A stretch of DNA of 64,000 bases from an uncultured Eubacteriales bacterium (GCA_949001935.1 CARJLX010000001.1:67231-131230); one strand, 5' to 3'; shown: positions 18,827-40,715, counted from the first letter of the stretch. A program made the numbers and translations. Notes: generated from the sequence alone by a model not told the origin.

Positions 18827-18940
18827 GTTTTCTTAGAAAAAAAATGGCAGTAAATATTGCATTTAGGGATTTATCAATCTAAAATCTCCTTAAAACATTT
18901 CAAATGTTTTGAAGATTTTAAGGAGGTATGATAAAATAAA

Positions 18941-19543
18941 ATGGAAACCAAGTACTTAAAAGGAGAGATAGAAAAGTTTGATTACAGCAAAATTATTTTG
19001 ACCTATCAACAATATTCACATGCAGATTTATGTAAAACAGGGCCGTGTGAGAATGGTGGGGAAAGTAATAGAATGTGTTGCAAGCCATTTATTCATCGTA
19101 TTCATGAACCAAAAAATATGCATACATTGCCAAAACATCCACATTGTGATTGTTTTTACAAAATTGTCAAAACAAAGTCGTTTGGAAGTATTTCTAAAAA
19201 AGGAACAGAGGCACCAGATGTATGGCTTAAACTCTTTCGCAAATTGCCTGACTATTATATAACAGAGCAAGAAGCAATAGAAGTTTATGGTTGGAACAAA
19301 AATAAAAACACAATTTCGGGCAAAGCACCCGGTAAAATGATAGGTGGAGATGTTTATAAAAATAACAAGCATATTTTGCCAGAAAAAGACGGAAGAGTTT
19401 GGTATCATTGTGATGTTGATTATGAATACGGTGCAAGAAATAGTCTAAGATTATATTATTCAAATGATGGATTGATGTTTTATTCACCAACACACCTTGA
19501 TGGGGATGTAATAGTTTATCAAATAAAAGGAAGTGAAAAATAA
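18941..19543 (+). CDS. Barnase-family ribonuclease toxin with short N-terminal MuF-like (HPxCxC) remnant
   Basis: The C-terminal 100 aa align by eye with barnase: KLPDYYITEQEAIEVYGW / APGKMIGGDVY / GRVWYHCDVDY / GARNSLRLYYS / THLDG. The N-terminus carries LPKHPHCDCFY. Confidence 0.85.
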   Translation: METKYLKGEIEKFDYSKIILTYQQYSHADLCKTGPCENGGESNRMCCKPFIHRIHEPKNMHTLPKHPHCDCFYKIVKTKSFGSISKKGTEAPDVWLKLFRKLPDYYITEQEAIEVYGWNKNKNTISGKAPGKMIGGDVYKNNKHILPEKDGRVWYHCDVDYEYGARNSLRLYYSNDGLMFYSPTHLDGDVIVYQIKGSEK

Positions 19544-19544
19544 A

Positions 19545-19871
19545 ATGAAAGAATTAATTTTTAATAGAAAGGATTACAAAAATTATCAAGAAATGTATAG
19601 TGATATGGCGATAAAATTTGGAGATGTTGGAACACAAGATTATTATGATACTTCATGTTTTGATTTTAATCCAGATATTTTATGGGAATTTTTGTTATGT
19701 TCATATGCGTTTACAAAAATTGATATAAAAATTGTTTTAGTTGGGTTTGCCCGAGAAAAGATTAAAGAAGAAAAAAATTATAACGATTATGAGTATAATA
19801 TGATTTTAAATGTTTTTGAAGATTTTGTTAAAGAATATCCAAATAATAAATTAGAATTTAGGGATGAATAA
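19545..19871 (+). CDS. Barstar-like immunity protein
   Basis: 108 aa, starting immediately after the toxin stop. FNPDILWEFLLC resembles the barstar inhibitory helix (ENLDALWDCLTG). Confidence 0.7.
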   Translation: MKELIFNRKDYKNYQEMYSDMAIKFGDVGTQDYYDTSCFDFNPDILWEFLLCSYAFTKIDIKIVLVGFAREKIKEEKNYNDYEYNMILNVFEDFVKEYPNNKLEFRDE

Positions 19872-25388: not shown

Positions 25389-26329
25389 ATGAAACTTTTA
25401 GATGAAATTTTGAAGAAAAAAGAAGAGGTTTTCACAAGTTGTGGTGAAAATGTGAAAATTGATAGTATTATGATTGAGAACAATGGCGAGGTTGCTCAGC
25501 ATTTTTACAAACCTGATGGGCTGCATGAAATGAGAAGTATAAGCAAAGTTATGATTGCCTTAGCTTACGGAATTGCCATAGATAGGCAAATTCTTGGCGG
25601 GGGGGGTATCAGTTAACTCTTGATACGCTTGTTTATCCAATTCTTAAAGATTTGACTGAGATTAGAAATAAAGACAATATAGATAAAATCAAAAAGTGGA
25701 CGATTAAAACACTTTTAACTTATTCGGCTGGTTATGAAAACCAAATGTTTTCTAATAAATTTATCAAAGATATTTATCCTAAAAATTATGTTGAATATTG
25801 TTTAAACTACCCATTAAAAAATCAACCTAACACCAAATATGTCTATAACAATGCCGAACCCTTCTTACTTTCAGTTTGTTTTCAAGAATATTTTGGAATT
25901 AATATTAAAGATTTTATTGTAAAAGAAATTTTCAAACCTTTAAAAATTAAAGATTTTATCTGGAAAAACTACGACAAATATTGTCCTGGTGGCACTGGGC
26001 TTTATCTTTCTCACAAAGATTTATTTAAAATTGGGCAGTTGATTTTAAGCAAAGGAAATTTTGAAGGCAGGCAAATTATAAGCAAAAGATATATTGAACA
26101 AATGTGTTCAACGCAAATGCAAACTCCATATGCTGTAAAGCCAGAGAGGGTTTTACCAAAAGAAAGTGTCGGGCTTGTGATGAAAATTTCAAGAAATGGC
26201 TATGTCTTTAAGGATGCGAAAAATGGCCAATACTTGATTGTTAATTTTGACAAGAATTTGCTTATCACAATTTTGGCAAGTGAAAAAGAAATGCAGTTTG
26301 TGACTGAAATTTTGAGAGGAGTTATTTAA
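25389..26329 (+). pseudogene. Serine hydrolase (beta-lactamase/PBP-like family) interrupted by a frameshift in a G8 tract
   Basis: ORF 25389-25616 carries the SxxK motif (SISK). ORF 25652-26329, in another frame, carries YxN (YNN). The second frame stays open back to the G run at 25599-25606, and G9 or G6 would fuse the two into ...LGGG(G)YQLTLDTLVYPILKDL.... Confidence 0.75.
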
Positions 26330-26696: not shown

Positions 26697-27764
26697 ATGA
26701 GTAATTTTTTTGCTAGATGTATTTGTAAAGCCACATCAAACAAATGTTTAATGACTTTTATGGTTATTGTTGGCACTGTTATTGGCAGTGGATTTTTGAG
26801 TGGAAAAGAGATAGTTGTTTTCTTTTCACGCTTTGGCAAAATGAGTTATTTTTGCATATTTCTTGCTTTTCTGCTTTTTTGGGGATTATTTTATTTTTTC
26901 CTTAAATATGCTGGCGGGACATTAAATAGGCTTGCAAGTTCTAAATATGCAAAGGTATTAAATTTTCTAATTTGTTTAATTTTATCAGCGGCAATGTTTG
27001 CAGGGATTATTGATTTATTATCATCGCTATGGTTTCCTATTCAAATTAGTATAATTTTTATCATGCTTTTAATTTGTTCAAGAATTGCATTAAAGGGGGC
27101 AAGTGTTCTTGAAAAACTAAATCTTTTCTTAGTGCCGATAATGATTGTATTTTTGATTATAAATCTTATATCTTTACTTTCATTAAAGACTTCTTCACTA
27201 TTTGTTGGTGGATATTATCCATACAGCATTTTCTTTTGCGTTTTGTATGTTATATTAAATACCTCAAATTCGGCTATAGTTATTTCTAATTTTTCTAAAG
27301 AATTAACTCAAAAGCAAAAAGTGCAAGTCAGTTTTTCCGCCGCACTTGCACTTTTTATTATTCTTTTATTTGCAAATATTGTATTACTACAAAATTCTTT
27401 TGCCTTTGGGCAGGAAATGCCTTTACTTTATTTAGTTAAGGGTGTCCAAAAAATTTTGATGAGTATCATCATGCTTATCGGATGCTCTACAACGCTTTTT
27501 TCTTTAGTATATACTATTTCTAGCAGTTTGAGAGGGGTGCATAATAAATTTTTTCTTTTGTTTTTCAGCGTTGGGCTTCCTTTTGCACTCAGTTTTCTCG
27601 GTTTTGGACTTATTGTTTCCTATTGTTATCCACTTACTAGTGTCTTGGGTATTTTTCTTTTGTGCGACTTATTTTGCATACCTTTTTTCAAAAAGGTTTA
27701 CAAGGGCATACATTCCACCCGCAAGAATACAAAGCAGGAAGATACTGGTCATGACAAGGTCTAG
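26697..27764 (+). CDS. YkvI-family polytopic membrane protein (putative transporter)
   Basis: About 10 hydrophobic segments and the N-terminal motif VIGSGFLSGKEI, typical of YkvI-like proteins. The start is uncertain because no clear RBS precedes it. Confidence 0.6.
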   Translation: MSNFFARCICKATSNKCLMTFMVIVGTVIGSGFLSGKEIVVFFSRFGKMSYFCIFLAFLLFWGLFYFFLKYAGGTLNRLASSKYAKVLNFLICLILSAAMFAGIIDLLSSLWFPIQISIIFIMLLICSRIALKGASVLEKLNLFLVPIMIVFLIINLISLLSLKTSSLFVGGYYPYSIFFCVLYVILNTSNSAIVISNFSKELTQKQKVQVSFSAALALFIILLFANIVLLQNSFAFGQEMPLLYLVKGVQKILMSIIMLIGCSTTLFSLVYTISSSLRGVHNKFFLLFFSVGLPFALSFLGFGLIVSYCYPLTSVLGIFLLCDLFCIPFFKKVYKGIHSTRKNTKQEDTGHDKV

Positions 27765-28475
27765 ATTAAGCATACTTTTGCCTAGATTGATTAGATAACC
27801 AAGTCCTGCCGTACTTGAAAGATATTCGCCCATAACAGTGCCAACCCAGCTCATACCTACATTAATTTTAAGCACGGAGATAAAGTCGGGTATTGCACTT
27901 GGCAATATGAGTTTTCGAAGTATTTGAAATTTGCTTGCATGCATAGACTGCATAAGCAAGATTTTATCTTGGTCGCAACTAGTGAAGGCATTTAGAAGTG
28001 AAATGGTTGTTATAACTATACAAATTAGCACGCACATCACTATTGTTGCACTAAAGCCTGAGCCTACCCAGAAGATTATTATTGGTCCAAGGGCAATTTT
28101 TGGTAGACTATTCAAAACTATAAGGTAGGGTTGAGCAACTTTTCTTGCTCGTTCGCTCCACCAAAGAAGAATTGCAATTAAGCCTCCAAGTAAGGTGGCA
28201 ATCAAGAAACCTAATATAGTTTCAAGCAGGCTTATACCCATATGCATCCAGATTTCACCCCCACTAAACAGGTCAACAAGAGTGACTGCTATTTTACTTG
28301 GGCTTGAAAAGAAGAATGGGTCTATAACGCCAGTATACGCAAATAATTCCCAAAGACCTAAGAAGAGAAAGAGAAGTAGTATCTGCAAAAAGATTACTAA
28401 TGTTTTCTCTTTTTTTAAAGATTTTACATATTTTTTATGTGTCTGAGAAAATTTTACTTGTTGTTTGGTTTTCAT
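27669..28475 (-). CDS. ABC transporter permease (NitT/TauT, SsuC-like family)
   Basis: Six TM segments and an EAA-like loop (LMQSMHASKFQILRKLILPSAIP). Start set at MKTKQQ (28475), which overlaps the end of the ATPase gene. Confidence 0.8.
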   Translation of the reverse strand: MKTKQQVKFSQTHKKYVKSLKKEKTLVIFLQILLLFLFLGLWELFAYTGVIDPFFFSSPSKIAVTLVDLFSGGEIWMHMGISLLETILGFLIATLLGGLIAILLWWSERARKVAQPYLIVLNSLPKIALGPIIIFWVGSGFSATIVMCVLICIVITTISLLNAFTSCDQDKILLMQSMHASKFQILRKLILPSAIPDFISVLKINVGMSWVGTVMGEYLSSTAGLGYLINLGKSMLNLDLVMTSIFLLCILAGGMYALVNLFEKRYAK

Positions 28476-29229
28476 TGGTAAGACTTCTCCAAATGGTTTC
28501 AAAATGCCTGCCAAATTCGCTGTCCTCGCGTTTTGCAAGTGGCGTCTTACCCTCAAAGTTTAAGTCTAGCACCTGTTTTACTTGGGCTGGACGAGATGAT
28601 AACACAATTATCCTATCCGACATGGACAGAGCTTCAGATATGTCATGACTGACAAGAAGTGCTGTCTTTTTTTCTCGCTTTATAATATCATAAACATCAT
28701 CGCAGACGAGAAGGCGGGTTTGAAAATCTAGTGCTGAGAATGGTTCGTCAAGAAGTAGCAGGGCAGGCTCTAACATTAAAGTTCGAATAAGAGCCACACG
28801 CTGTCGCATTCCGCCAGAAAGTTCGCGAGGCTTTTTGTTTTTAAAGTTGTAGAGGTCATATTTTTTGAGAAGTTCATTGGCTCGTTCAAGTTTTTCATGG
28901 TCTTTATTTTTCTTTTGTATCTCAAGTCCAAGCGTTATATTTTGCCAAATAGTGCGCCATTCAAATAATTGGTCGCGTTGAAACATATAGCCAACCTTGC
29001 CGTCATGTTTATTAACAATTTCACCATTAATTGTAATTTCTCCGCTTGAAGGCTTTAAAAGCCCAGCAGTTAGAGATAAGATTGTGGTTTTTCCACAGCC
29101 ACTTGGGCCAACGAGGGAGGCGAAAGAGTCTTGTTTGACAGAAAAGTCAAGGTTATTTAACGCTTGAATTTCATTATCTTTAGTTTGATAAAAGAAAGAA
29201 ACATTTTTATATTGTAAAAAGTTTTCCAT
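28435..29229 (-). CDS. ABC transporter ATP-binding protein (NitT/TauT family)
   Basis: Walker A GPSGCGKTT, signature LSGGMRQR and Walker B LLLLDEPFSALD. Confidence 0.92.
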   Translation of the reverse strand: MENFLQYKNVSFFYQTKDNEIQALNNLDFSVKQDSFASLVGPSGCGKTTILSLTAGLLKPSSGEITINGEIVNKHDGKVGYMFQRDQLFEWRTIWQNITLGLEIQKKNKDHEKLERANELLKKYDLYNFKNKKPRELSGGMRQRVALIRTLMLEPALLLLDEPFSALDFQTRLLVCDDVYDIIKREKKTALLVSHDISEALSMSDRIIVLSSRPAQVKQVLDLNFEGKTPLAKREDSEFGRHFETIWRSLTNENQTTSKIFSDT

Positions 29230-29380
29230 GATTTTTTTAACCTCTACAATATCATTTTATAAATTCCTCAATCTTTTGTGACTAAATTTTTAAAAAAATT
29301 GCAAATAGTTGGCAGTAAACCTTGAAAAACAATAATTTCATATTTTATACTCATGCCAAAGTTGCTTAAAGGAGGAAAGG

Positions 29381-29683
29381 GTGGATGAAGAAGGAAAACT
29401 TAAAAAGGCTTTATTAAAGAAAGCTTTGGGTTATGATGCCAACGAGGTTGTATGCGAGTATGTTCTAGATGAAGAAGGTCAAGAAAAGCTTAGCAAAAAA
29501 AAGGTGACCAAAAAGCATTATAGTCCTGACATATCGGCCGTCAAAATGATGTTTGAAAGATATTATGGAGATGATTATGCAGATATTTACAACATGAGTG
29601 ATGAAGAACTTGAAAGCGAGAGAAAGCGACTTTTGAAAATTTTAAAGGAGGAAGATGATGGAAATCACAAGATGCAAACATAG
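29381..29683 (+). CDS. Possible small-terminase C-terminal fragment (tentative)
   Basis: 100 aa. KKALLKKALGYD...KK..SPDISAVKMMFERY resembles the C-terminal part of some Firmicute phage TerS proteins. No N-terminal HTH is present. Confidence 0.3.
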   Translation: MDEEGKLKKALLKKALGYDANEVVCEYVLDEEGQEKLSKKKVTKKHYSPDISAVKMMFERYYGDDYADIYNMSDEELESERKRLLKILKEEDDGNHKMQT

Positions 29684-29879
29684 GGTTAAGTGTGACTTTT
29701 ATGGTTGTAGCAATTTGGCAGATTACTCTTTTTCTACAAAGGGGCTTATAAAAAGAGATTTATGTTTTTGCCAAGATTGTTTGAAAGGAATGTACGAATG
29801 TATTTCTAAAATGCAGGTACCCAAGGGAATTGAAAGCCCATTTAAATTAAATAAGAGGTTAAAGAAAGATGAAAAATAA
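29655..29879 (+). CDS. Small Cys-rich (zinc-ribbon-like) phage protein
   Basis: 74 aa with several paired Cys (C..C, CFC..C). It overlaps both neighbouring genes. Confidence 0.4.
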   Translation: MMEITRCKHRVKCDFYGCSNLADYSFSTKGLIKRDLCFCQDCLKGMYECISKMQVPKGIESPFKLNKRLKKDEK

Positions 29880-31740
29880 TAAAGTTAAACTAGAAGAACA
29901 AAGAGTTCAAGATTTAGTTAAGGAAGTTATTGATGACTTCCACAAGCGTCAATATGACCGCAAAAGTTTTGATACAACTTGGCAAATGAACATGAATTTT
30001 CTGCTTGGAAATCAATATTGCAATATTGGTTATGGCGGAGCTGTTGAAGAGATGGACAAGCAATATTTTTGGCAGGAGCGAGAGGTTTTTAATCATATTG
30101 CACCTATTTATGATATTAGATTTGCTAAATTATCTAAAATTAAGCCAAAAATGAGTGTTATACCATCAACAACTGACGAGAGAGATATTAAAACTGCAAA
30201 GGTTTCAAAAAAGATTTTATCTGCGATTTACAACAAAATGGGTATTGGTGAAAAAATCAACGAAGCTTTAAAGTGGAGTGAGGTTTGTGGAACAAGTTTT
30301 TACAAGGTTGTTTGGAGCAAAGATTTAGGTCAAGTAGTTGGCATTGATGAAAATAATAATCATATTAAAAGCGGTGAAGTTGAAGTTTCTGTTTGCTCTC
30401 CTTTTGAAATTTATCCAGACAATATGTCGGCAGGCAATTTAGATGAATGTCAATCAATTATTCATGCAAAAGCATATTCGGTTTTTGACATTAAAGATTT
30501 ATTTGGTGTTGATGTTGAAGGGCAAGATATTAAAACTTTTACATTAAATAATGTTTATTCTGGATTAGGTGGTCTTGGTTATAATGCAACTGCAACTAAG
30601 ATTACACAAAACGTTAAGTCAAATTCAGCAATTGTAATTGAGCGTTATGAAAAGCCATCAAGAGAATTCCCTAATGGTAGGCTTATTATTGTTGCTGGAG
30701 ACAAACTTGTTTTTGAGGGAGAACTTCCTTTTGCAAACGGAATTGATGGCAAAAGAGATTTTCCTTTTATAAGACAAATTTCTTTTGAAAATCCTGGTTG
30801 TTTTTGGGGAAGCAGTGTTATAGAAAGACTGATTCCTGTTCAAAGGGCTTATAACGCAGTAAAAAATCGCAAGCATGAATTTATCAACAGGCTTTCTCTT
30901 GGGATATTGAGTGTTGAGGATGGCTCTGTTGATATTGACAATCTTGAAGACGAAGGCTTATGTCCAGGGAAGGTTTTGGTTTATAGACAGGGGGCTGACA
31001 AGCCAGAGTATCTTTCTGCAGAATCAATCCCTAGCGGTTTAAGTGATGAAGAAGATAAGTTATTAACAGAATTCTCTAAAATAAGTGGCGTTACAGAGAT
31101 TTTGGATAAGAGTTATGTTTCTTCTAATCTAAGTGGTGTTGCACTTGAACTTTTGATTGGTCAAGATGAAACAAGATTAAATATGTCTAGCGAGAGTTTA
31201 AAAAATGCTGTTAGACTTATTGCTCAAAAAATCTTGAGGCTTTACAAACAATTTGCAATTTTCCCAAGACTTGCAAAACTTGTTGGAGATAATGGCAAAT
31301 TGGAAATGTTTTATTTCTCTTCAAGTGATGTTTCATCTGATGATGTTGTGATTGATGCTCAAAGCGAGGTTGGAGAAACGCTTACTCAAAGAAGAGAAAT
31401 GCTTTTCACACTTCTTGACAAGGGCTTATTAAGTGATGAAAATGGAAGTCTATCTAATCGTATGAAAACCAAGTTTTTAGATATGCTTGGACTTGGCGTT
31501 TGGGAGGGTGGACAAGACCTACACGAACTTCAAACCAATATGGCTGACGAAGAAAACTTAAAAATGCTTGACGGCGTTAGTGTTAAAACTTGTGAGATTG
31601 ATGATAACGAATTGCATTACAATTCTCATGTTGCCTTTATGCTTGGCAAAGATTACCTAAATGCAAAAGCTAAAAACCCTAAACTTGAAGATATATTTTT
31701 AGAGCATGTGCGTGAACACAAAAAAGAATTAAATAAATAA
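29869..31740 (+). CDS. Phage portal protein
   Basis: 623 aa. It sits directly upstream of the scaffold-like and capsid-like genes, and the N-terminal ...NMNFLLGNQY... region is reminiscent of podoviral head-tail connector proteins. Confidence 0.6.
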   Translation: MKNNKVKLEEQRVQDLVKEVIDDFHKRQYDRKSFDTTWQMNMNFLLGNQYCNIGYGGAVEEMDKQYFWQEREVFNHIAPIYDIRFAKLSKIKPKMSVIPSTTDERDIKTAKVSKKILSAIYNKMGIGEKINEALKWSEVCGTSFYKVVWSKDLGQVVGIDENNNHIKSGEVEVSVCSPFEIYPDNMSAGNLDECQSIIHAKAYSVFDIKDLFGVDVEGQDIKTFTLNNVYSGLGGLGYNATATKITQNVKSNSAIVIERYEKPSREFPNGRLIIVAGDKLVFEGELPFANGIDGKRDFPFIRQISFENPGCFWGSSVIERLIPVQRAYNAVKNRKHEFINRLSLGILSVEDGSVDIDNLEDEGLCPGKVLVYRQGADKPEYLSAESIPSGLSDEEDKLLTEFSKISGVTEILDKSYVSSNLSGVALELLIGQDETRLNMSSESLKNAVRLIAQKILRLYKQFAIFPRLAKLVGDNGKLEMFYFSSSDVSSDDVVIDAQSEVGETLTQRREMLFTLLDKGLLSDENGSLSNRMKTKFLDMLGLGVWEGGQDLHELQTNMADEENLKMLDGVSVKTCEIDDNELHYNSHVAFMLGKDYLNAKAKNPKLEDIFLEHVREHKKELNK

Positions 31741-31754
31741 AATTTGGAGGATTT

Positions 31755-32456
31755 ATGGAAGAATTACAAAGAGAACAACCATTAGAGGAACCAGCAAATG
31801 TTTCAGGCGAAACGATTGGTGAAAGTGCTGCGAGTGTGAATGGCTCTCTAAAAGAAATGGCAGATGGTGAGTTTGTAGATTTTGAAAATTTTGAGGACAA
31901 AGTTGATACTCCCTCAATTTTACAAGAACATAAAGAAGGAGATTTAGGAAAGTTTAAATCTGTGCAAGCTTTGTTTGACGCGTATAACAATTTGCAGGCT
32001 TCTTACACCAAAAAGTGCCAACGCTTAAGTGAACTTGAAAAAGAGAAAGCAGATTTTAAAGAAGATTTAAAGGAGAATGAAAATTCTTTAGAAGCTAACT
32101 TAAATTTGTTCCTTTCAAAGAACGCCGAAGCGAAAGGTTTTGCCGAAGAAATTAAAAATAAAATAGAAAATTCTGGCAAAACTGACATCTCCGCAATTGA
32201 AGGTGCTTGGAATGAAATTGTACTTGATCATATCAAGAATCCTTTTGATGACGGAGATAAAATAGTGGACAAATATGTCCTAGAAAATCAAAATGTTCGA
32301 GATAAAATTATTCAAGATTATATTAATTCATTAAACAAAACTTTAGTTCCTAAAGTTATTTCTTCAGGACAAGGACAAAGAGTGTCAGACATAACGACTG
32401 GCACTCCTGCGTCATTGTCTGAAGCTAAAAAAATGATGAAGCGAATGTTTGAATAA
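31755..32456 (+). CDS. Scaffolding protein (candidate)
   Basis: 233 aa, acidic and coiled-coil-rich, lying between the portal and capsid genes. Confidence 0.5.
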   Translation: MEELQREQPLEEPANVSGETIGESAASVNGSLKEMADGEFVDFENFEDKVDTPSILQEHKEGDLGKFKSVQALFDAYNNLQASYTKKCQRLSELEKEKADFKEDLKENENSLEANLNLFLSKNAEAKGFAEEIKNKIENSGKTDISAIEGAWNEIVLDHIKNPFDDGDKIVDKYVLENQNVRDKIIQDYINSLNKTLVPKVISSGQGQRVSDITTGTPASLSEAKKMMKRMFE

Positions 32457-32493
32457 TTTTCTTAACAAAACAATTATTTAAAGGAGAAAAATT

Positions 32494-33714
32494 ATGGTTT
32501 CACTTACAACAGCAAACAACGCTTTAAAAGATGTTTATGTAGGCGTTGTTGCAAATCAATTAAACATCAATGCAAATCCTCTTCTTTCTCAAATCAAAAG
32601 ATCTAATAAGGATATTTGGGGAAAAGAGATCGTAAAAATGACTACTTATGGTATCAATGGTGGTATCGGAGCAGGCGAAGAAACTGGGGCTCTTCCTATG
32701 GCAACTGGCAATAGTTATGCACAAATTCGCGCTACACTTAAAAACCTTTATGGTCAACTTGAAATATCAGACAAAGCTATCAAAAGTTCTGCAAACAATA
32801 TTGGTGCTTTTGTTGACCTTCTTGCTTATGAAATGGAAGGACTTGTAAAAGCAAGTTCATTCAATCTTGGCAGAATGCTTTATGGTGATGGTTCTGGAAA
32901 AGTTGCAACTATTTCAGCTGTTGATACTTCAGCTAAAACAATCACTTGTGATAGCGTTAGAAATATCATTGAAGGTATGGTTTTGGATGCTTTTGCAGGT
33001 TCTACTAAGAAAAGTACAGGGGCTATTAAAGTGACATATGTTGACCGCACAAACAACAAGTTTACATTTGATGGTGATATTTATGCAGGTAGCGAACTTG
33101 CTAAAGATCAAGTTTTATATGTTCAAGGTTCAAAAGATTTAGAGATAACAGGTCTTGGAAAACTTTTCTCTGCTGAAGATACATTATACGGTCTTAGCAA
33201 AACAACTTATCCTTGGCTTAAGTCTTATAAAACAGACTCAACAGAAAAAGAAATTTCTGATATGCTTATTCAAGAAGCTATTGATTTCTTGGAAGAGAAC
33301 AATGATGCAGGAATAAACTTTATTTCTTGTTCAAGCAAGGTTAGACGTGCATATCAACAATATCTCTCTGCTTATAGAAGAAATGTAGATATTGCTGAAC
33401 TTGCGGGTGGCTTTAAAACTATTACTCACAATGGAATTCCTGTTGTTGCAGATAGATTTGTTGAGGATGATGCTATGTATCTTCTTAACACTAACGACTT
33501 TACACTTCATGAACTTGATGACTGGAAGTGGATTGAAAGCGAAGATGGAAGTGTATTAAGACAAAATGCTGGACATGCAACATATTCAGCAACACTTGTT
33601 AAATATGCCGAACTCTTATGTGATAAGCCTGCTTCTCAAGCAAAGATTTGCGGAATTAAAGCAACTGTGACCAATCCATTTTTACCAAATGTGACTGCTA
33701 ATACAGAAGGTTAA
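32494..33714 (+). CDS. Major capsid protein (candidate)
   Basis: 406 aa with a strong RBS AAAGGAGA. It follows the scaffold gene, and its composition and the ...GRMLYGDGSGK... block are typical of phage coat proteins. Confidence 0.6.
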   Translation: MVSLTTANNALKDVYVGVVANQLNINANPLLSQIKRSNKDIWGKEIVKMTTYGINGGIGAGEETGALPMATGNSYAQIRATLKNLYGQLEISDKAIKSSANNIGAFVDLLAYEMEGLVKASSFNLGRMLYGDGSGKVATISAVDTSAKTITCDSVRNIIEGMVLDAFAGSTKKSTGAIKVTYVDRTNNKFTFDGDIYAGSELAKDQVLYVQGSKDLEITGLGKLFSAEDTLYGLSKTTYPWLKSYKTDSTEKEISDMLIQEAIDFLEENNDAGINFISCSSKVRRAYQQYLSAYRRNVDIAELAGGFKTITHNGIPVVADRFVEDDAMYLLNTNDFTLHELDDWKWIESEDGSVLRQNAGHATYSATLVKYAELLCDKPASQAKICGIKATVTNPFLPNVTANTEG

Positions 33715-33798
33715 AAATAGAGGGCAAAAAGTTTACTTTTTGCCTTTTATTGTTTTTTGAAGAATTTTTAAGGTTTTTAATCTATTTTAGGAGGTTTT

Positions 33799-34113
33799 AT
33801 GAGAAATTATTTGCTTGTTGATAATGATGTTTATTTTATTTCACAAAGATTGAAAGAGATAGATTTTCGTTATTTTATACTTTTCAATTTAAAAAAACAT
33901 AAATATGAAGTTCACAGCCTAGGACAGATAGGAGGTAGTTATTGTTTTACTCTTCCATTTGACTGTCTTGATGCAAGAGCAATTTCTTTTACTTTAAAAA
34001 CCAAAAGTGAAAACATTGAAAAGCTTGTTAAGGAAATAGATGAAGAAAACAAAAAACTAGAAAAAAACAATATAAAAAAGGCAGTTAATAAACTTGAGGA
34101 GGTTTTATTATGA
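33799..34113 (+). CDS. Phage hypothetical protein (104 aa)
   Basis: RBS AGGAGG, and a 4-nt overlap with the next gene. Confidence 0.5.
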   Translation: MRNYLLVDNDVYFISQRLKEIDFRYFILFNLKKHKYEVHSLGQIGGSYCFTLPFDCLDARAISFTLKTKSENIEKLVKEIDEENKKLEKNNIKKAVNKLEEVLL

Positions 34114-34670
34114 AAGCAATAGATATTATAAAAATTGCTTGTGATTTTACTGAAAATCAAGAGCTTGCTATAAAATTAGACGAAGAAAACCCTGAGTTTA
34201 CTTCAAACGAAAACAAAAAAATAAATTTGTTATTAAAATGTTTAAATTTAATTCAAAATGAGGTTGCGTGTGAATTTATTCCCTTGCAAGCCATAGAGGA
34301 AGTTAAGGCTACAGATTTTAAGGTTAATTATAATCAATTTTCTAAAAAACCAATTTCTATTATTTGGGCAAAAGATAAATTAGGAAGAAACATTCGCTTT
34401 AAGTCTTTTGCAGATTACCTTATGATTTTTGGTGGTTCAGCAAAAATTAAATATAATTATATGCCAAAGGAAATCACTTCTCTTGATAGTGATATAGAGG
34501 AAGCTATTTTACCAATGCGCATATATGCATATGGAATAGCCAGAGAATTTTATCTTATGCAGAGTTTGAGTGAAGATGCAGATATTTGGGAGGTTAGATT
34601 CAAGGATAGTCTTTGTGTTTTTGCAAGAAAAAAACAAGAAGTCAAAATGCCTTGCAGGAGGTGGCTATGA
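34110..34670 (+). CDS. Head-tail adaptor candidate (186 aa)
   Basis: Its size and position correspond to T7 gp11-type adaptors. Its stop overlaps the next gene's start (ATGA). Confidence 0.35.
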   Translation: MKAIDIIKIACDFTENQELAIKLDEENPEFTSNENKKINLLLKCLNLIQNEVACEFIPLQAIEEVKATDFKVNYNQFSKKPISIIWAKDKLGRNIRFKSFADYLMIFGGSAKIKYNYMPKEITSLDSDIEEAILPMRIYAYGIAREFYLMQSLSEDADIWEVRFKDSLCVFARKKQEVKMPCRRWL

Positions 34671-36154
34671 TTTTGAATAAAAACCTAGTGAAAGGCAAGA
34701 AGAAAACTCAAAAAAATCTTATTTATGATGTATTTCAAAACTTTGTAGACTCTTCTATTGCAGAAAGCAGGCAAGAGATTAAAAATGTATCTTCAACTTA
34801 TAACTTTGATATATCAAATGGAGAACTTAAAAGTGGTTATGGGTTTAAAAGACTACAAATGCCAACTAGCAGTTCAAACCTTGATAGTGAAGAGGTTTTA
34901 GCGTTGGATGGCAATGAAGTTTATGCTTTATGGTCTTTCAAATGGTATAGTTCGCTTGCTAAAGAGAACAGATACTATATTGTTTATTATAACGACTTAA
35001 ACAGGCTTGGCTTTGCAAATCTTTTCAATGCTCGTCCAGTTGCCTTGTTTGCTCCAACAGACTTTACTAGTACACCTGTTGGAAACAAAACAAGATACAA
35101 TGGTGACGATGCTATGGTATTTTCTGGCGACATTGATGGACTTTATTTAATGACTGGAAATATTTCAAGAATGTACGAAGATGCACCAAGGGTTTTGTCT
35201 ATTTGTTGGCAGTTTGATAAATATTTTGCAATCACAGCTGGTGAACAGGCTAATTTATATTACAGTGACAATAAAGACATAACTTCTTGGACGGCTCAAA
35301 CCATGAAAGAGATAACATTTGATGATGATAAGGGCAAGCTCAACAAGGTTATGGCGTTCAACGACTATGTTTATGTTTTTAGAGATTTTGGCATAACTAA
35401 AATTTCTATTTATAGTACAAAAAACTTATTTGATGTTAGTGGCATTTATCAATGTGATAGTTTTATTTATCCTGGGACAATCGCATCATCGGGAGATAAA
35501 ATATATTTTCTTGAAGGTTCGGGTATTTATTCCTTCAATGGTTCTTCTACAACAAAAATCAATCTTGAATGTGATGATATGTTAAATAAGACTCAAAAAC
35601 ACAATGCAAGTGCCGTTTGTTTTGAGGGCAGGTATTATCTTGCATGTCGTTATAATTTTGATGATGGTAAAGTTGTAGGGTGCGAAAATGAAGAGGGATA
35701 TGTAAATAATGTCCTTTTTGTGCTTGATTTGGTTTCTAAAAAAGTTAATCTTTTGCGAGGAGTTGATATTAAACAACTTTGTGTCTTGAATAATCCATTT
35801 AAAAGTAAGGTTGTTGCATGTTTTAATGGGAACAATAAAAGTTTTATTGGCGAACTTACTATGGATGGAGATGTATTTGAAGTTTCAACAAGCAAAGAAT
35901 GGACGAGTGTATTAAGTGATTTGAAAGAGCCTGAAAAACTTAAAAAGATTGAATATTTAACTATAAAATCGACAACCGATTGTGAGGTTAAAATTGATAG
36001 TGATAGAGAAGATAAGAGAATTCAAGTTTTGGGTTGTGAAAAATTACAAAAATTGAGTGTTAATGTTTTAGGGCGTGAATTTAAAATTTCATTCTCAACA
36101 ACAAGTAAAGATGCAAACATTTCAAATGTTAAATTAGGCTATAGTATAACCTAA
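34667..36154 (+). CDS. Beta-propeller-like tail nozzle/tubular candidate (495 aa)
   Basis: Start at ATG 34667, behind AGGAGGTGG. It has repeated Y/F-rich beta-strand blades (YALWSF, YIVYYND, YLMTG, YFAITAG, YVYVFRDFG, IYFLEGSG, YYLACRY, LFVLDL). Its position corresponds to T7 gp12. Confidence 0.35.
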   Translation: MILNKNLVKGKKKTQKNLIYDVFQNFVDSSIAESRQEIKNVSSTYNFDISNGELKSGYGFKRLQMPTSSSNLDSEEVLALDGNEVYALWSFKWYSSLAKENRYYIVYYNDLNRLGFANLFNARPVALFAPTDFTSTPVGNKTRYNGDDAMVFSGDIDGLYLMTGNISRMYEDAPRVLSICWQFDKYFAITAGEQANLYYSDNKDITSWTAQTMKEITFDDDKGKLNKVMAFNDYVYVFRDFGITKISIYSTKNLFDVSGIYQCDSFIYPGTIASSGDKIYFLEGSGIYSFNGSSTTKINLECDDMLNKTQKHNASAVCFEGRYYLACRYNFDDGKVVGCENEEGYVNNVLFVLDLVSKKVNLLRGVDIKQLCVLNNPFKSKVVACFNGNNKSFIGELTMDGDVFEVSTSKEWTSVLSDLKEPEKLKKIEYLTIKSTTDCEVKIDSDREDKRIQVLGCEKLQKLSVNVLGREFKISFSTTSKDANISNVKLGYSIT

Positions 36155-36275
36155 TGATAATTTTCAATTTAGGACATATTTCCCACTACAAAAAAAAGAA
36201 ATTAATTCGTGAGGTGGGCGATATGAAAAAACTTTTTAATGAAGAAATACTAGGACGATCTAAGGATAAAGGTCT

Positions 36276-36500
36276 ATGAGTTTTTGGAATGAAATAATAA
36301 GCGTTGTTGTTAGTAATGGAATTTTTGCCACATTATTTGTTTTTCTATTTTTCTATCAACTAAAAGATAGTTCTAAACGCGAAAAAGCATATCAGCAAAC
36401 AATAACCGATCTTACTCAACATTTAGAAATGATTGAGGAGGTTAAAGAAGAGGTTAAAGAATTGCAAGGACTTATCAAAGGAGGGGAAGATGAAAAATAA
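36276..36500 (+). CDS. BhlA/UviB-family holin-like protein
   Basis: 74 aa with an N-terminal TM segment NGIFATLFVFLFFYQLKDSSKREKAY, typical of BhlA, followed by an acidic coiled tail. Confidence 0.65.
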   Translation: MSFWNEIISVVVSNGIFATLFVFLFFYQLKDSSKREKAYQQTITDLTQHLEMIEEVKEEVKELQGLIKGGEDEK

Positions 36501-36756
36501 ATTTCGATCTTATGGATTTTGGACAGCACTTGCTGGAGCGGTTGTGGTGCTGCTAAATGCATTAGGTCAAGCCTTTGGATTTTCTGTGAATGATGAAATT
36601 GTGACAAGTATAATTATGGCGATAGCGGGTGTACTTGTTGTGTTTGGAGTTGTCAGTATGCCAAAAGGTGAAGACGAAAATAAACAAGATGAAATTGAAG
36701 AACAAAAAGAAGATCAAGAAGAATTGGAAGAAAATAAAGATAACAAGCAAGAATAA
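36490..36756 (+). CDS. Phage holin (two-TM, phi LC3/SPP1-like pattern)
   Basis: Start at ATG 36490, behind AGGAGGGG. MKNKFRSYGFWTALAGAVVVLLNALGQAFGF...IIMAIAGVLVVFGVV, followed by a highly charged tail. Confidence 0.6.
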   Translation: MKNKFRSYGFWTALAGAVVVLLNALGQAFGFSVNDEIVTSIIMAIAGVLVVFGVVSMPKGEDENKQDEIEEQKEDQEELEENKDNKQE

Positions 36757-36782
36757 AAAAGGTGCCATTGGCACCTTTTTTT
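36755..36782 (+). terminator. Intrinsic terminator ending the phage-like module
   Basis: Hairpin GGTGCC-att-GGCACC followed by T7. Confidence 0.8.
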
Positions 36783-36974: not shown

Positions 36975-39074
36975 TTAAGCCACAACAGCGAGTCCTACTT
37001 GGAACTTGTAGTTTTTGGTTGCATAGTCGGATGCAGTCGTCACTTTTACAACCTCAAAAGCAACTTCAAAGAAATCGCAACCATCACTGCCAGAGAACTT
37101 TTCTGGATTTAAAGTTCCATAAGTGTAGGTGGTTTTATCTTCCTCGTTGAAACCATTTTGCATAGTGTAGTAATTGCGTCTGTCGTTGTTTCCTGTTAAA
37201 GGAAGTGCTGTGCCAATGCTTACAAGTCCGTTATACTCTTCTATAGATTGAAGTATACCATTGCCGATATCAGTAGTAAATTCACTGCAAGTGATACCTC
37301 TTGCTTTGCCATTTATGTCGTCCGAATTTATGCCATAAAGCATTGCGGTATTGTTTTTAGAGCCATAAGAGAAACCAGTATCTTGAATTGTTATTTGCAT
37401 AACCTCGTATTTATTTGTGCCTTGTTTGAGATAGGCAGGTCGATATAAATTGTCCTCTTTTGTGTAGTGATTCATGTGGATATTGATTGTGATAGACTCG
37501 TTGCCAACAATGTCGTCGCTACCTTTGTAGTTGAACATTAATCTAATATTCGAGAATTGGAATTTTTTTCTAAACATAAGTGCAAAACTTTGATATTCAA
37601 GTTCTGGCAGATTTGCAAACTCATTGCCTTTGTCGGCAGAGATAAAGAAATCGTTTCCAAAATAATCTATAACTTCACTTGCAAGATATCTGTCGTTGAT
37701 AGTAGGAGCATTTTCGTCTTCGCCCTCTTCTGGATTTTGACCGATTGAAACGAGAGTTGTGCATATGTCGATAATTGCATCAATGTTTTCTTCATAGTGT
37801 CTATCAATATCAGTCACTTTGACTGGTGTTGAAACTTCAACTTCAGGTTGAGGTGTTGTTTGAGGATTGCCGTTTTTATCGCAATAAACTTTGGTTGTTG
37901 TGGAGCCTGATGTTTCCTCATAATAATATTGTGTTGAGGTAGTTGTGATTTCGTTGATAGTAAACGAATTGTCGCTGTTTTCGCCAATAATGTTTTGTAA
38001 AATCCAATTTTTAAGACGAATTTGTTGACGATCAGTTATGCCGACATAAGAGCCAACTTTTTTGAAAACATCTTGAATAGTTTCAAGTGCAATATCTACA
38101 GATGATTTTTCGTCGGTTGCAGGATAGCCGGCAATTTCGACTAATGGAGTGCCATCACTTTTTAAACGAACTTCCATACTGTTTGGAGTTAAATCCAAGT
38201 TGAAACAATAAATTGCATATTCAAGTGCTTTTACATAATCACTGTAATTTAAAAATTGTAGTTGTTTTTCTTCGTATTCAGTTCCAAGATAAATTTTTGA
38301 ATAGTTGTTTTGATAGTTTGTTGCGTTATAAATGGTAGAAAATTCTCTATAAATGTCTTGCTTATCAGTAAAACTATTATCAGGATCAAAAGCGGGGGCA
38401 ATAACACTTATATTTTCAGTTGTAAGGGCTTCGGCAGGTTTACCTTCGGTGTCGTAAGCATAGTAGGAATATTCATAATTATTTATATTTGTGTCAAAAC
38501 TCCAATTCCAAGACTTTTGAGTTGACGCTCTAACAACATAACTATTACTTTTTGGAGAAGGCGAACCTTGTGAGAAAGAGCCATCAGCATTTTTTGTTAA
38601 TTTTACTTCTTGACTTATATTATTTCCGTAAGAAGAAATTTGATATCTTATACTATCATAGAAGCCATTTAATTTATCATCAGTGTCTGGAATTATGTTT
38701 TCAAGAATAGTTCCATCATTCAAAGTAATTTCAATTTTTTGAGTGGTAGCGTATGTTCTGGTCAAAGAGTTTAAAATCCACCAAGCATATTGACCATAAT
38801 AGTATTCATTTCCTTGGCCTATGTAATCTTCATCTTCCCAGCCATAACTCTCAGGGCGATATAAAACTTTTGTGCCGTAAAGAGGAACAGATTGAGAAAG
38901 CAGGCGTTGTTCCAAAAATTCTTCATAACTTATCTCACCATTTTCATAGCGGTCTTTTAAGGTAGAAGAGTAGTTTGAGTCATTACCAGAGCATCCAACT
39001 CCAAGCACACCAAAAATGCACACGAGAAGTGAGCAAAGAATTTTTGATAATCTACCTTTGTTTTTCTTTTTCAT
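36975..39074 (-). CDS. Large lipoprotein of unknown function (699 aa)
   Basis: Signal peptide with lipobox LGVGCSG. The protein is rich in Asn, Thr and Tyr, and I recognised no catalytic motif. Confidence 0.7.
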   Translation of the reverse strand: MKKKNKGRLSKILCSLLVCIFGVLGVGCSGNDSNYSSTLKDRYENGEISYEEFLEQRLLSQSVPLYGTKVLYRPESYGWEDEDYIGQGNEYYYGQYAWWILNSLTRTYATTQKIEITLNDGTILENIIPDTDDKLNGFYDSIRYQISSYGNNISQEVKLTKNADGSFSQGSPSPKSNSYVVRASTQKSWNWSFDTNINNYEYSYYAYDTEGKPAEALTTENISVIAPAFDPDNSFTDKQDIYREFSTIYNATNYQNNYSKIYLGTEYEEKQLQFLNYSDYVKALEYAIYCFNLDLTPNSMEVRLKSDGTPLVEIAGYPATDEKSSVDIALETIQDVFKKVGSYVGITDRQQIRLKNWILQNIIGENSDNSFTINEITTTSTQYYYEETSGSTTTKVYCDKNGNPQTTPQPEVEVSTPVKVTDIDRHYEENIDAIIDICTTLVSIGQNPEEGEDENAPTINDRYLASEVIDYFGNDFFISADKGNEFANLPELEYQSFALMFRKKFQFSNIRLMFNYKGSDDIVGNESITINIHMNHYTKEDNLYRPAYLKQGTNKYEVMQITIQDTGFSYGSKNNTAMLYGINSDDINGKARGITCSEFTTDIGNGILQSIEEYNGLVSIGTALPLTGNNDRRNYYTMQNGFNEEDKTTYTYGTLNPEKFSGSDGCDFFEVAFEVVKVTTASDYATKNYKFQVGLAVVA

Positions 39075-39145
39075 AACAATATTGTATACTATTTTTAAAA
39101 ATAAATCAATTATATTAAATAAAAAAGTAGGATACTTCCTACTTT

Positions 39146-40573
39146 TTAAATATTTTGTTCTTTTTCTTGTATTTGAACTGCTAAGAATTCTTTATCACCT
39201 TCATAAACATTGTAAGTTTTTAAAACCTGTGAATAAGTGTCTTTTGAAGGCTCTTTTCCTAAAAAGTTTTCTTTTGCAACTTGAAGTTTAGTTAATGTAG
39301 AATTTGATCTATTTATTTTTAAATTATATTCATAAATAACATTGTCTTTTACCATAACAATAGTATGAGGATCTTGGCCAAGAGTACTTAAACCATACCA
39401 ACCAGTCCAATCTGCTTTTTTATAATCGTCTTTTAATGTTTGGGTTTTAAGAATCTGCACTAGTTCTTGTTCTTTTTCTTCATTACCTATACAAAACGAA
39501 TATTTTTCTATGCATGAAGTAGTTTGTAAATCATAATTTAAGTTTTGTTTATAAATATCTTCATAGGTGATATCTTTTTGTGTTGGAATAGTTAATTCTA
39601 CCCATTTAAGAAATATATCTTGCGTGTCAGTTCTTTGTAAAGTATAAACAGCACCAATAGTATCAACTACCGAAGAGTTTTCTGACTTAGTTAAGTAAAC
39701 ACTAAAAACATCTTGCAATTCTGATTTTTTTGTTGCTTTGTGACAAATATTCTCAACATGTGGTCGCATTGCTTGTTTCACTGCTTCAATATTCTCAGCA
39801 GTGATTTTAAATTCTTCTTCAACTGGAGGTTGTTCTTGTGTGTTGTTTACATAAGAGGAAGGAAGGTTAACAGGTGAGTTATTAACATTATAAACAGCCA
39901 TTGTTTGATTTGGTGTTGTCAAAACAAGTGAGTTATCTTTTGTGTTATATTGGCAAGAAACATTTAATTTTGATGAACTAACATCTGTTTTTCCATTCAA
40001 AGTGATTTGATTATTTTCTTGTTTTGCAGAAGTCCATTCAACCTCTCCAAGAGTTTCACAAAGTGAAGATTTAAGTGTTTGAGCGGTGAAGTTTTGAGTA
40101 GAAAAATTTTTATGCCATTCATTATTTTGAAGGGTGTATTCAAAAGCCTGACCTTCGGTGGTGTCAACATAAGTTATTTCTTGATTTTCTGTTAATTTAA
40201 CTTTACTATCTTCAATTTCAAATATTTTTGCATTATTTCCATTAGTTGTATCAACAGAAGAAGTTAAACTTTTTGCTTTCACGATATTTGAAACGATTTT
40301 GTTATATTCGCCTGTTGCAGTTTCAAGAAGAATTTTATCTTTATCTTCAGTTGTTGGTTTATCTGGTTCAATTGGCTCAACAGGTGTTGGTGGATTTGGA
40401 TTTACTGGTTTAGATGGCACATCTTTACAACTTGTAAACAGGGTTGCACCAAGTGCCAATGTTGCAGCAAGTCCCAACGCACCAAGAACTTTCATAACCT
40501 TTTTAAATCTTTTACCAACAGGTGCTTTATATGTATTTTCTTGTTTTACAATTTCATTAAATTTGTTTTTCAC
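39146..40573 (-). CDS. Lipoprotein of unknown function (about 476 aa)
   Basis: Lipobox LFTSC followed by a Pro-rich linker PVNPNPPTPVEPIEPDKP. The likely start is GTG 40573, behind GGAGGG; the ORF track starts at 40606. Confidence 0.65.
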   Translation of the reverse strand: MKNKFNEIVKQENTYKAPVGKRFKKVMKVLGALGLAATLALGATLFTSCKDVPSKPVNPNPPTPVEPIEPDKPTTEDKDKILLETATGEYNKIVSNIVKAKSLTSSVDTTNGNNAKIFEIEDSKVKLTENQEITYVDTTEGQAFEYTLQNNEWHKNFSTQNFTAQTLKSSLCETLGEVEWTSAKQENNQITLNGKTDVSSSKLNVSCQYNTKDNSLVLTTPNQTMAVYNVNNSPVNLPSSYVNNTQEQPPVEEEFKITAENIEAVKQAMRPHVENICHKATKKSELQDVFSVYLTKSENSSVVDTIGAVYTLQRTDTQDIFLKWVELTIPTQKDITYEDIYKQNLNYDLQTTSCIEKYSFCIGNEEKEQELVQILKTQTLKDDYKKADWTGWYGLSTLGQDPHTIVMVKDNVIYEYNLKINRSNSTLTKLQVAKENFLGKEPSKDTYSQVLKTYNVYEGDKEFLAVQIQEKEQNI

Positions 40574-40715
40574 AATTTCCCTCCATTTATAGATATATTT
40601 TATCATAAAAACAGCATTTTTGCAATAGTTTTTTAAGTAATTATTTTTTAATTTAGTTAAAATAATTGTCTACTTGACTAATTCGACATTTTTTGATACA
40701 ATTTAGGCGATATTT

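Follow-up and report, generated by a model that had tools for sequence, protein, structure and literature searches.

We analysed a 64,000-nucleotide stretch of DNA (the window; G000:C1:67231-131230) from the genome of an uncultured gut Christensenellales bacterium of the UBA1242 type (1.04 Mb, 13 contigs, 98% complete, ~32% G+C), and found that ten genes at window positions 29381-36756, together with a large terminase (TerL) locus elsewhere on the same contig, make up what is close to certain to be a host-fixed, selected, phage-derived set of genes for building particles. We favour the reading that this is a chromosomally fixed, vertically inherited and split particle system derived from a short-tailed phage and resembling a gene transfer agent (GTA), a function that is predicted from the genes and that we hold to be probable, with moderate confidence. 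An earlier note on the window had listed a domesticated capsid or GTA-like module among several alternatives, and this is the one that the evidence favours.

The set was found throughout the genus. The capsid gene was present in all 36 genus genomes (42-97% identity), as was the portal gene (55-97% identity), and TerL was present in 34 of the 36, the two genomes without it being 94% and 89% complete. At every one of the 20 genus loci that we fetched, on contigs of up to 335 kb, the gene order was identical (membrane protein, ABC permease, ABC ATPase, TerS-like protein, Cys protein, portal, scaffold, capsid, 104-residue protein, adaptor, nozzle, two holins), which rules out an assembly artefact, and full-length orthologues were recovered from 29-42 loci per gene. 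Identities to the nearest species with long loci were 82% for the portal and 84% for the capsid, compared with 88% for rluA, 75% for pepF, 79% for holA and 59% for comEC.

The ratios of nonsynonymous to synonymous substitution (dN/dS), obtained by the method of Nei and Gojobori (NG86), were 0.07-0.11 for the portal, 0.10-0.13 for the capsid, 0.07 for the TerS-like protein, 0.09-0.10 for the Cys protein and 0.08-0.18 for the holins, and those of the neighbours were 0.07 for rluA, 0.08-0.09 for pepF, 0.11-0.14 for the ABC genes, 0.11 for holA and 0.19 for comEC; all are approximate, because dS (0.8-2.4) was near saturation. Distance matrices of unlinked genes, calculated over 9 to 12 genus genomes whose kinship makes permutation P values indicative only, agreed with r=0.96 for TerL against portal, r=0.87 for TerL against the ABC ATPase and r=0.92 for portal against the ABC ATPase. 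These comparisons indicate that the block is inherited vertically and is under purifying selection like that on its housekeeping neighbours. The argument of the earlier note against simple decay is borne out by the housekeeping-like dN/dS and the full-length orthologues, and its suggestion of a recently truncated prophage is excluded by the comparison with relatives, with the same site in 20/20 genus genomes and the same selection as on housekeeping genes. Phage-derived genes that are inherited vertically under purifying selection are one mark of a gene transfer agent, and they are seen here in 36/36 genomes and 20/20 colinear loci, with dN/dS of 0.07-0.25 and distances that track those of host genes.

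A second mark is the lack of replication, integration and lysogeny genes and of any means of self-transmission. We found no integrase, replication, repressor, tail-fibre, lysin or TerL gene adjoining the block within the window, and neither an excisionase gene nor att-like border repeats at the block. The previous claim that TerL, fibre, lysin, integrase and replication genes are missing therefore stands for the window, but a search of the genome located a single, intact TerL gene on the same contig as the head operon (C1:427808-429247, minus strand), 324 kb away from it. It matched Terminase_6N (E 5.4e-10) and phrog_2 (5.6e-29), and its Walker A (GGNRTGKT), Walker B (VWFDEEPP) and nuclease Asp motifs were invariant in 12 genus genomes. 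TerL was constantly accompanied by two genes: orf175, encoding 175 residues that matched a transcriptional activator family (phrog_248, 4.6e-9) and whose weak profile matches in the PDB were nearly all to sigma region 4, and orf284, which encodes a conserved membrane-anchored protein of 284 residues on the opposite strand. The TerL locus was flanked by housekeeping or surface-protein genes, among which no gene for an integrase, replication or lysogeny was found. Without replication or integration genes, and with its loci split over 324 kb, the kit cannot propagate itself, and it is this logic that defines a gene transfer agent.

In sister genera of the family and in other families of the order, the two blocks formed one contiguous cluster of ~12 kb, in the order orf175, orf284 (reverse), TerL, TerS-like protein, Cys protein, portal, scaffold, capsid, 104-residue protein, adaptor, nozzle, DUF7934 (~300-340 residues) and holins, flanked on both sides by housekeeping genes and without a lysin. 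An 811-residue membrane protein gene was inserted 3' of TerL in some relatives, and three species of the genus (G003, G036 and G026) had TerL, the 811-residue gene and the ABC cassette directly 5' of the TerS-like gene, an intermediate arrangement. In most genus genomes, including this one, the head and TerL halves lay 35 to >300 kb apart. Judged from these loci, the arrangements of the relatives form a series from contiguous through intermediate to split. The ABC importer is itself divided: the earlier note had described an ABC operon lacking a binding-protein gene, which proved correct for the window (ATPase and permease at 27669-29229), and we found the missing NMT1-type gene by the TerL block, 324 kb off (L017:2542-3549; G000:C1:421541-422548). 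It adjoins the TerL block in six relatives as well. The position of the binding-protein gene beside TerL, and that of the TerS-like gene between TerL and portal, support a history in which one cluster was split.

Two further arrangements of the capsid gene were observed. A sister genus has two tandem capsid copies in an otherwise standard contiguous cluster (L096; G405:C2:8035-10370). In another order of Clostridia, a capsid homologue of 41% identity was accompanied by the 104-residue gene in 11/11 genomes of one genus (L093, G158:C34:52000-71900; L095, G317:C23:110000-129900), with no portal or TerL match adjoining it, and this may be another fixed capsid-gene lineage.

The ten open reading frames (ORFs) of the head block are all intact and co-oriented (+ strand), and form a single operon with its own promoter and terminator; the order, intactness, tight coupling and ribosome-binding sites (RBSs) described earlier were all confirmed, with ATGA overlaps at 34110 and 34667 and strong RBSs present in the sequence. 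The promoter (29309-29351, + strand), identified in the sequence and by a promoter scan, has TTGGCAGTAAACC followed by a -35 box (TTGAAA), an 18-nt spacer and a -10 box (TATACT), and a conserved 5' leader, TGCCAAAGTTGC, lies 3' of it. Directly 3' of the capsid stop codon is a terminator-like hairpin with a T-run (33716-33751, + strand; 16-bp stem, -23.8 kcal/mol, z -2.9), which probably attenuates transcription of the genes downstream of the capsid. The operon ends at a bidirectional terminator-like hairpin (36755-36781; 12-bp stem between a T run and an A run) between the last holin and a convergent lipoprotein gene.

The portal, scaffold, capsid, adaptor, nozzle and holin identities first proposed for these genes hold by profiles and predicted folds, and in the case of the scaffold by position and composition. 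The operon opens with the TerS-like protein of 100 residues (29381-29683; GTG start, RBS AAAGGAGG), which matched phrog_309 (5.3e-6) at profile positions 197-253 of 319 only. It had been taken for a fragment of a terS gene, a view that we do not retain: throughout the order, a gene of ~100 residues is kept in this form between TerL and portal, and phrog_309 was matched by 12 of 14 orthologues, through the C-terminal part of the profile only. The protein is therefore without the helix-turn-helix (HTH) domain for DNA recognition. The next gene (29655-29879) encodes a Cys-rich, zinc-ribbon-like protein of 74 residues, seven of them Cys, with orthologues in 35 loci and no family match among Pfam, PHROG and NCBIfam profiles. 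It is followed by a P22-type portal of 623 residues (29869-31740; Pfam PF16510 P22_portal, 9.7e-15; phrog_156, 2.7e-32) and by a 233-residue acidic protein (31755-32456; 20% Asp plus Glu), which we assigned as the scaffolding protein from its position and composition. The latter had no family match in the same three profile collections, sits between portal and capsid at every locus compared and evolves fast (dN/dS 0.44). The major capsid protein of 406 residues (32494-33714) matched NCBIfam capsid_maj_Podo (NF033394, 6.9e-74) and phrog_14242 (6.4e-59).

Downstream of the capsid gene, a 104-residue protein with a C-terminal coiled coil (33799-34113) is encoded beside the capsid gene in 41 loci, including those of other orders; it had no family match and no significant PDB match by profile search, and is a candidate head-completion or neck protein. 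Sequence-profile searches of this protein and of the following two, of 186 and 495 residues, against the PDB gave nothing significant, and the adaptor and nozzle were recognised by fold only. The 186-residue protein (34110-34670) was predicted by AlphaFold2 (AF2) with a pLDDT of 86, and Foldseek matched it best to the head-to-tail adaptor fold of Pa223 (9nwi_A, 1.3e-6, TM 0.70), as well as to SU10 (7z47_A), KHP30 and T7 gp11. The 495-residue protein (34667-36154), whose ATG overlaps the adaptor stop codon (ATGA), was predicted with a pLDDT of 83.7 and a pTM of 0.85; the fold is that of a β-propeller, as had been guessed from the sequence, and its best match was again in Pa223 (9nwi_Y, 4.6e-18, TM 0.71), with further matches to VP1, SU10 and T7 gp12 and to P22 gp10 (9jg6_a, TM 0.60/0.63), in keeping with a tail nozzle or hub. 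The earlier parallel with the T7 gene order is sound as to the adaptor and nozzle roles, but the tail machine, with its P22-type portal and gp10-like hub, is nearer to those of P22, SU10 and Pa223. Two holins complete the operon: one of the BhlA family with 74 residues (36276-36500; PF10960, 1.3e-17; dN/dS 0.08), and a second in an ORF running from a TTG at 36433 to 36756 (phrog_297, 1.4e-10; phrog_962, 1.6e-7), which most likely starts at the ATG at 36490, behind GGAGGGG, to give 88 residues.

The consensus for the head-operon promoter in the genus is TTGGCA-N7-TTGAnn, a 17-18-nt spacer, TAnAAT and the conserved leader, and the element was conserved in 15 of the 16 genus promoters aligned. 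Its core, TGGCAGTAAA, recurs at the orf175 promoter and at four further promoters in the genome. A motif search found the 15-mer TGGCAGTAAATATTG at a constant distance from the -10 box upstream of four units: orf175 in the TerL locus; the gene of a 401-residue coiled-coil protein on contig 3 (C3:53375-54580); a pair of genes, of 211 and 113 residues, just 5' of that coiled-coil gene; and an RNase-like pair in the window (18845-19871, + strand; 200 residues and an overlapping 112 residues), with the motif at 18845. The head operon (29310) is preceded by a close variant, as is a paralogous pair on contig 6. Five of the eight genomic copies of the 10-mer core belong to these promoters, and the other three fall within coding regions and are without the TTG part. 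The count of an 11-mer (3 observed against 1.4-1.5 expected) was not significant, and the case for a promoter motif is made instead by the 15-mer, its fixed position in the promoter and its conservation in relatives. Most genus loci, and one other family, have the element upstream of orf175 as well, and in three of eight relatives it directly precedes the coiled-coil orthologue. We considered the element as a sigma-54 site and rejected this, because it reads GG-N11-GA rather than GG-N10-GC and is followed by normal -35 and -10 boxes.

Members of the coiled-coil family (253-635 residues in total) are conserved at the N-terminal end and in a C-terminal knob or domain, with a coiled coil between them that differs widely in length, and this is how fibres and the P22 gp26-type needle are built; matches of the 401-residue protein to needle and sigma-1 fibres are driven by the coiled coil, and we regard it as a candidate needle or fibre. 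It was also tried as a diverged form of DUF7934 and rejected (hhalign probability 0.3). DUF7934 (PF25588), which in other Christensenellales separates the nozzle gene from the holin genes (L069:4340-5302, L098:6282-7295, L077:7043-7999, L044:13772-14662), is probably a distal tail or plug component, to judge by that position.

The 200-residue ORF of the window pair matched PF00545 Ribonuclease (barnase/RNase T1-type) at 2.6e-4, below the cut-off, and it looks, with its 112-residue partner, like a toxin-immunity pair, possibly one belonging to the regulon of the particle genes. The paralogous pairs behind the element or its variant (G000:C3:51323-52296, L166:5323-6296; G000:C6:26763-27796, L167:4763-5796) each consist of a Cys-rich protein of 211 or 215 residues and a protein of 113 or 129 residues, with no family match; they were not found in the eight relatives checked, the closest included, and look like strain-specific cargo.

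Upstream of orf175 we found TTGTAAAA repeats, and exact Spo0A-box heptamers occurred upstream of orf175 in 6 of 22 loci, nine-fold over background; we regard control of orf175 by Spo0A as a lead. The genome encodes Spo0A and two proteins that consist of the Spo0A DNA-binding domain alone (G000:C1:159294-159602, C3:29490-29795, C3:54716-55027), and one of the latter two adjoins the coiled-coil gene.

These features suggest how such a system might work. The host would switch on orf175 from its promoter with TGGCAGTAAATATTG and 0A-box-like sites upstream, and promoters with the same element would then fire at the head operon and at the coiled-coil needle- or fibre-like gene on contig 3. Portal, scaffold and capsid protein would assemble into procapsids, which TerL and a TerS-like partner without a DNA-recognition domain would fill with non-specific host DNA; the adaptor and the P22 gp10-like nozzle would close the portal, and the two holins, with a host autolysin, would release the particles. 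Random packaging of host DNA is hinted at indirectly by the TerS-like protein without HTH and by the published signal of Christensenellaceae metagenome-assembled genomes (MAGs) in virus-like particles (PMC12946183). A bolder proposal, which we regard as rather doubtful when taken as a whole, is that in this spore-former with a minimal genome a small sigma-region-4-like regulon, possibly under Spo0A, fires the split GTA-like kit, the needle or fibre gene, the holins and the toxin-immunity-like pairs as an altruistic module that lyses the cell, donates DNA and kills competitors; this would be a GTA lineage independent of those described, and the basis of whole-genome packaging of Christensenellaceae in stool.

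Several observations, in addition to the near-saturated dS noted above, weigh against a functional gene transfer agent. One in-frame stop occurs in some matches in relatives (capsid in G015, G018 and G036; portal in G035; TerL in G002), which may reflect local decay or assembly or sequencing error. No endolysin gene is linked to the kit, and the single Amidase_3 gene in the genome (C3:50498-51193) resembles the sporulation protein CwlD, its size and N-terminal anchor fitting CwlD as well as an endolysin. The kit has no confirmed receptor-binding protein, the coiled-coil protein being a candidate only; its gene, found in only 19 of the 36 genus genomes, is linked to the kit by promoter motif and architecture alone. 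The DUF7934 gene is absent from this genome and from the genus, and the TerL promoter is without the shared element.

Some of these points are those that would be expected if the particles were kept for a purpose other than gene transfer, either programmed lysis with release of DNA and cell contents, or killing and competition by means of the toxin-immunity-like pairs. That the element also precedes the RNase-like and small-ORF pair and the two paralogous pairs, that the conserved operon contains two holins, and that a confirmed receptor-binding protein is wanting and DUF7934 has been lost in the genus, all speak for this explanation. However, TerL, the TerS-like protein and the portal are as strictly conserved as housekeeping proteins, and this conservation, with the invariant TerL motifs, argues that DNA packaging itself is selected; in addition, the needle- or fibre-like gene shares the promoter element of the kit and is by this token co-regulated with it. 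We consider a non-transfer purpose unlikely, while giving it serious weight. That the kit serves as a structural reservoir, hijacked by a phage or satellite without capsid or packaging genes of its own, is improbable: the lack of replication functions in the kit would suit such a role, but only a single portal and a single TerL were found in the genome, with no other region of phage-like structural genes, and a sporadic parasite would hardly account for genes that every species of the genus has kept over deep divergence.

The two remaining explanations are very improbable. A defective prophage remnant in which decay has not yet begun would account for the phage origin, the many phage functions that are absent and the few relatives with in-frame stops, but not for the fixed site and order (20/20), the full-length orthologues at 42-97% identity or dN/dS values like those of core neighbours, and a reduced genome of 1 Mb normally purges useless DNA. 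A capsid-forming satellite, similar to the capsid-forming phage-inducible chromosomal islands (cf-PICIs), as the earlier note had also entertained, or another mobile island would fit a content limited to head and packaging functions, but the features of such elements (integrase, excisionase, att site, replication module, variable presence or insertion site) were not found at either locus, and the position is fixed in the genus genomes examined, the halves lie 324 kb apart and inheritance is vertical, with divergence that tracks that of host genes.

On the left, the block is flanked by the ABC ATPase and permease genes (opposite strand), a multi-pass membrane protein gene, pepF and rluA, and on the right by two fast-evolving lipoprotein genes (opposite strand) and then comEC and holA. 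The lipoproteins, of 699 and 486 residues (36975-40606, minus strand, between the holins and comEC), have dN/dS values of 0.24-0.67 and only 38-45% identity where the capsid has 84%, are absent from many genus genomes and have no family match; they are variable surface proteins. We examined these two ORFs, and those of 811 and 784 residues beside TerL, as the missing fibres, and rejected them because they carry lipoboxes, or a signal peptide and a C-terminal membrane anchor, are fast-evolving and are not conserved beyond the genus; all four look like host surface proteins. At 25652-26329, a 225-residue ORF with a TTG start covers only positions 93-311 of a 329-position beta-lactamase/penicillin-binding protein profile (1e-10) and is possibly a truncated gene; the loci of relatives yielded no orthologue.

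At the DNA level, the block matched none of 50,697 phage records searched, and the best deposited phage capsid protein, from actinobacterial podoviruses, was 29% identical. This capsid family is a very large one in metagenomes: scoring of 8,000 candidates yielded at least 5,723 clusters (90% identity) that belong to it. Matches in IMG/VR were mostly short, host-like fragments with the same cluster, and the few longer contigs, with capsid genes 36-42% identical, carry a different layout.

The P22-like tail-machine set is present here (the PF16510 portal, the adaptor fold and the hub fold, including that of P22 gp10), and the system shares with P22, SU10 and Pa223 a P22-type portal, the adaptor fold, the gp10-like hub or nozzle fold and scaffold-dependent assembly without a protease, and with P22 possibly a coiled-coil needle like gp26, for which we have the candidate described above. 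It differs from them in having no tailspike, ejection-protein, replication, lysogeny or endolysin genes, in being fixed and split in the host chromosome, and in a capsid identity of at most 29% to any deposited phage. The RcGTA type of gene transfer agent in Alphaproteobacteria comprises vertically inherited, dispersed structural genes of phage origin, a TerS without DNA specificity, regulation at the level of the host and release by lysis, together with a siphovirus-like tail and a prohead protease that processes the capsid. The likeness to our system is one of shared logic, whereas the lineage is unrelated, the tail here being podovirus-like and assembly scaffold-based; a Foldseek comparison of the adaptor with the RcGTA neck protein (6toa_C) was insignificant (E 0.08).

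The closest parallel in kind is the FpGTA of Faecalibacterium prausnitzii, a podovirus-like, two-operon, genus-wide GTA-like element that forms 40-nm capsids containing ~8.5-9 kb of DNA (Borodovich et al., Nat Commun 2026, PMC12946183). The same study reports a TerS without a DNA-binding domain in FpGTA and, in virus-like particles from human stool, GTA-like packaging of whole Christensenellaceae genomes (MAGs), without naming the genes responsible (PMC12946183). Both systems belong to gut Clostridia and have a podovirus-like kit without replication or integration genes, with a TerS-like protein lacking a DNA-binding domain, TerL, portal and capsid, at more than one chromosomal locus and conserved genus-wide. 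However, the FpGTA capsid (RCH50849.1) is named 'N4-gp56 family' by NCBI (Supplementary Data 2), whereas the capsid here belongs to capsid_maj_Podo (NF033394), a comparison that rests on NCBI family names; TIGR04387 (N4-gp56) did not match the window capsid, nor anything in the genome at E<=1. Operon I of FpGTA has the order TerS, TerL, portal, Prp-like, capsid, whereas here portal and capsid are separated by an acidic scaffold, the TerS-like gene comes after TerL and the holins belong to the head operon. Operon II of FpGTA encodes baseplate, fibre, receptor-binding protein, holin and endolysin, and no endolysin or baseplate locus was found here. FpGTA is, moreover, known from particles, DNA and proteomics, and the present system from genes alone. 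Set apart by NCBI family names and by gene order and content, the two are treated here as the same kind of device from different phage lineages, analogous and not orthologous.

For this genome, the present analysis adds the location of TerL, the order of the rearrangements, the difference in capsid family from FpGTA, the loss of DUF7934 and the promoter element linking three loci. Gene transfer agents have been well characterised in few lineages, the first in a gut commensal being FpGTA in 2026, and the cluster described here is a concrete candidate for the genes behind the packaging of Christensenellaceae genomes (PMC12946183). That a reduced genome of 1 Mb keeps ~10 kb of kit (head operon, 7.4 kb; TerL locus, ~2.9 kb) over distant loci speaks for a real benefit to the host, and the difference between its capsid family and that of FpGTA would mean that gut Clostridia have domesticated short-tailed phages on at least two occasions.

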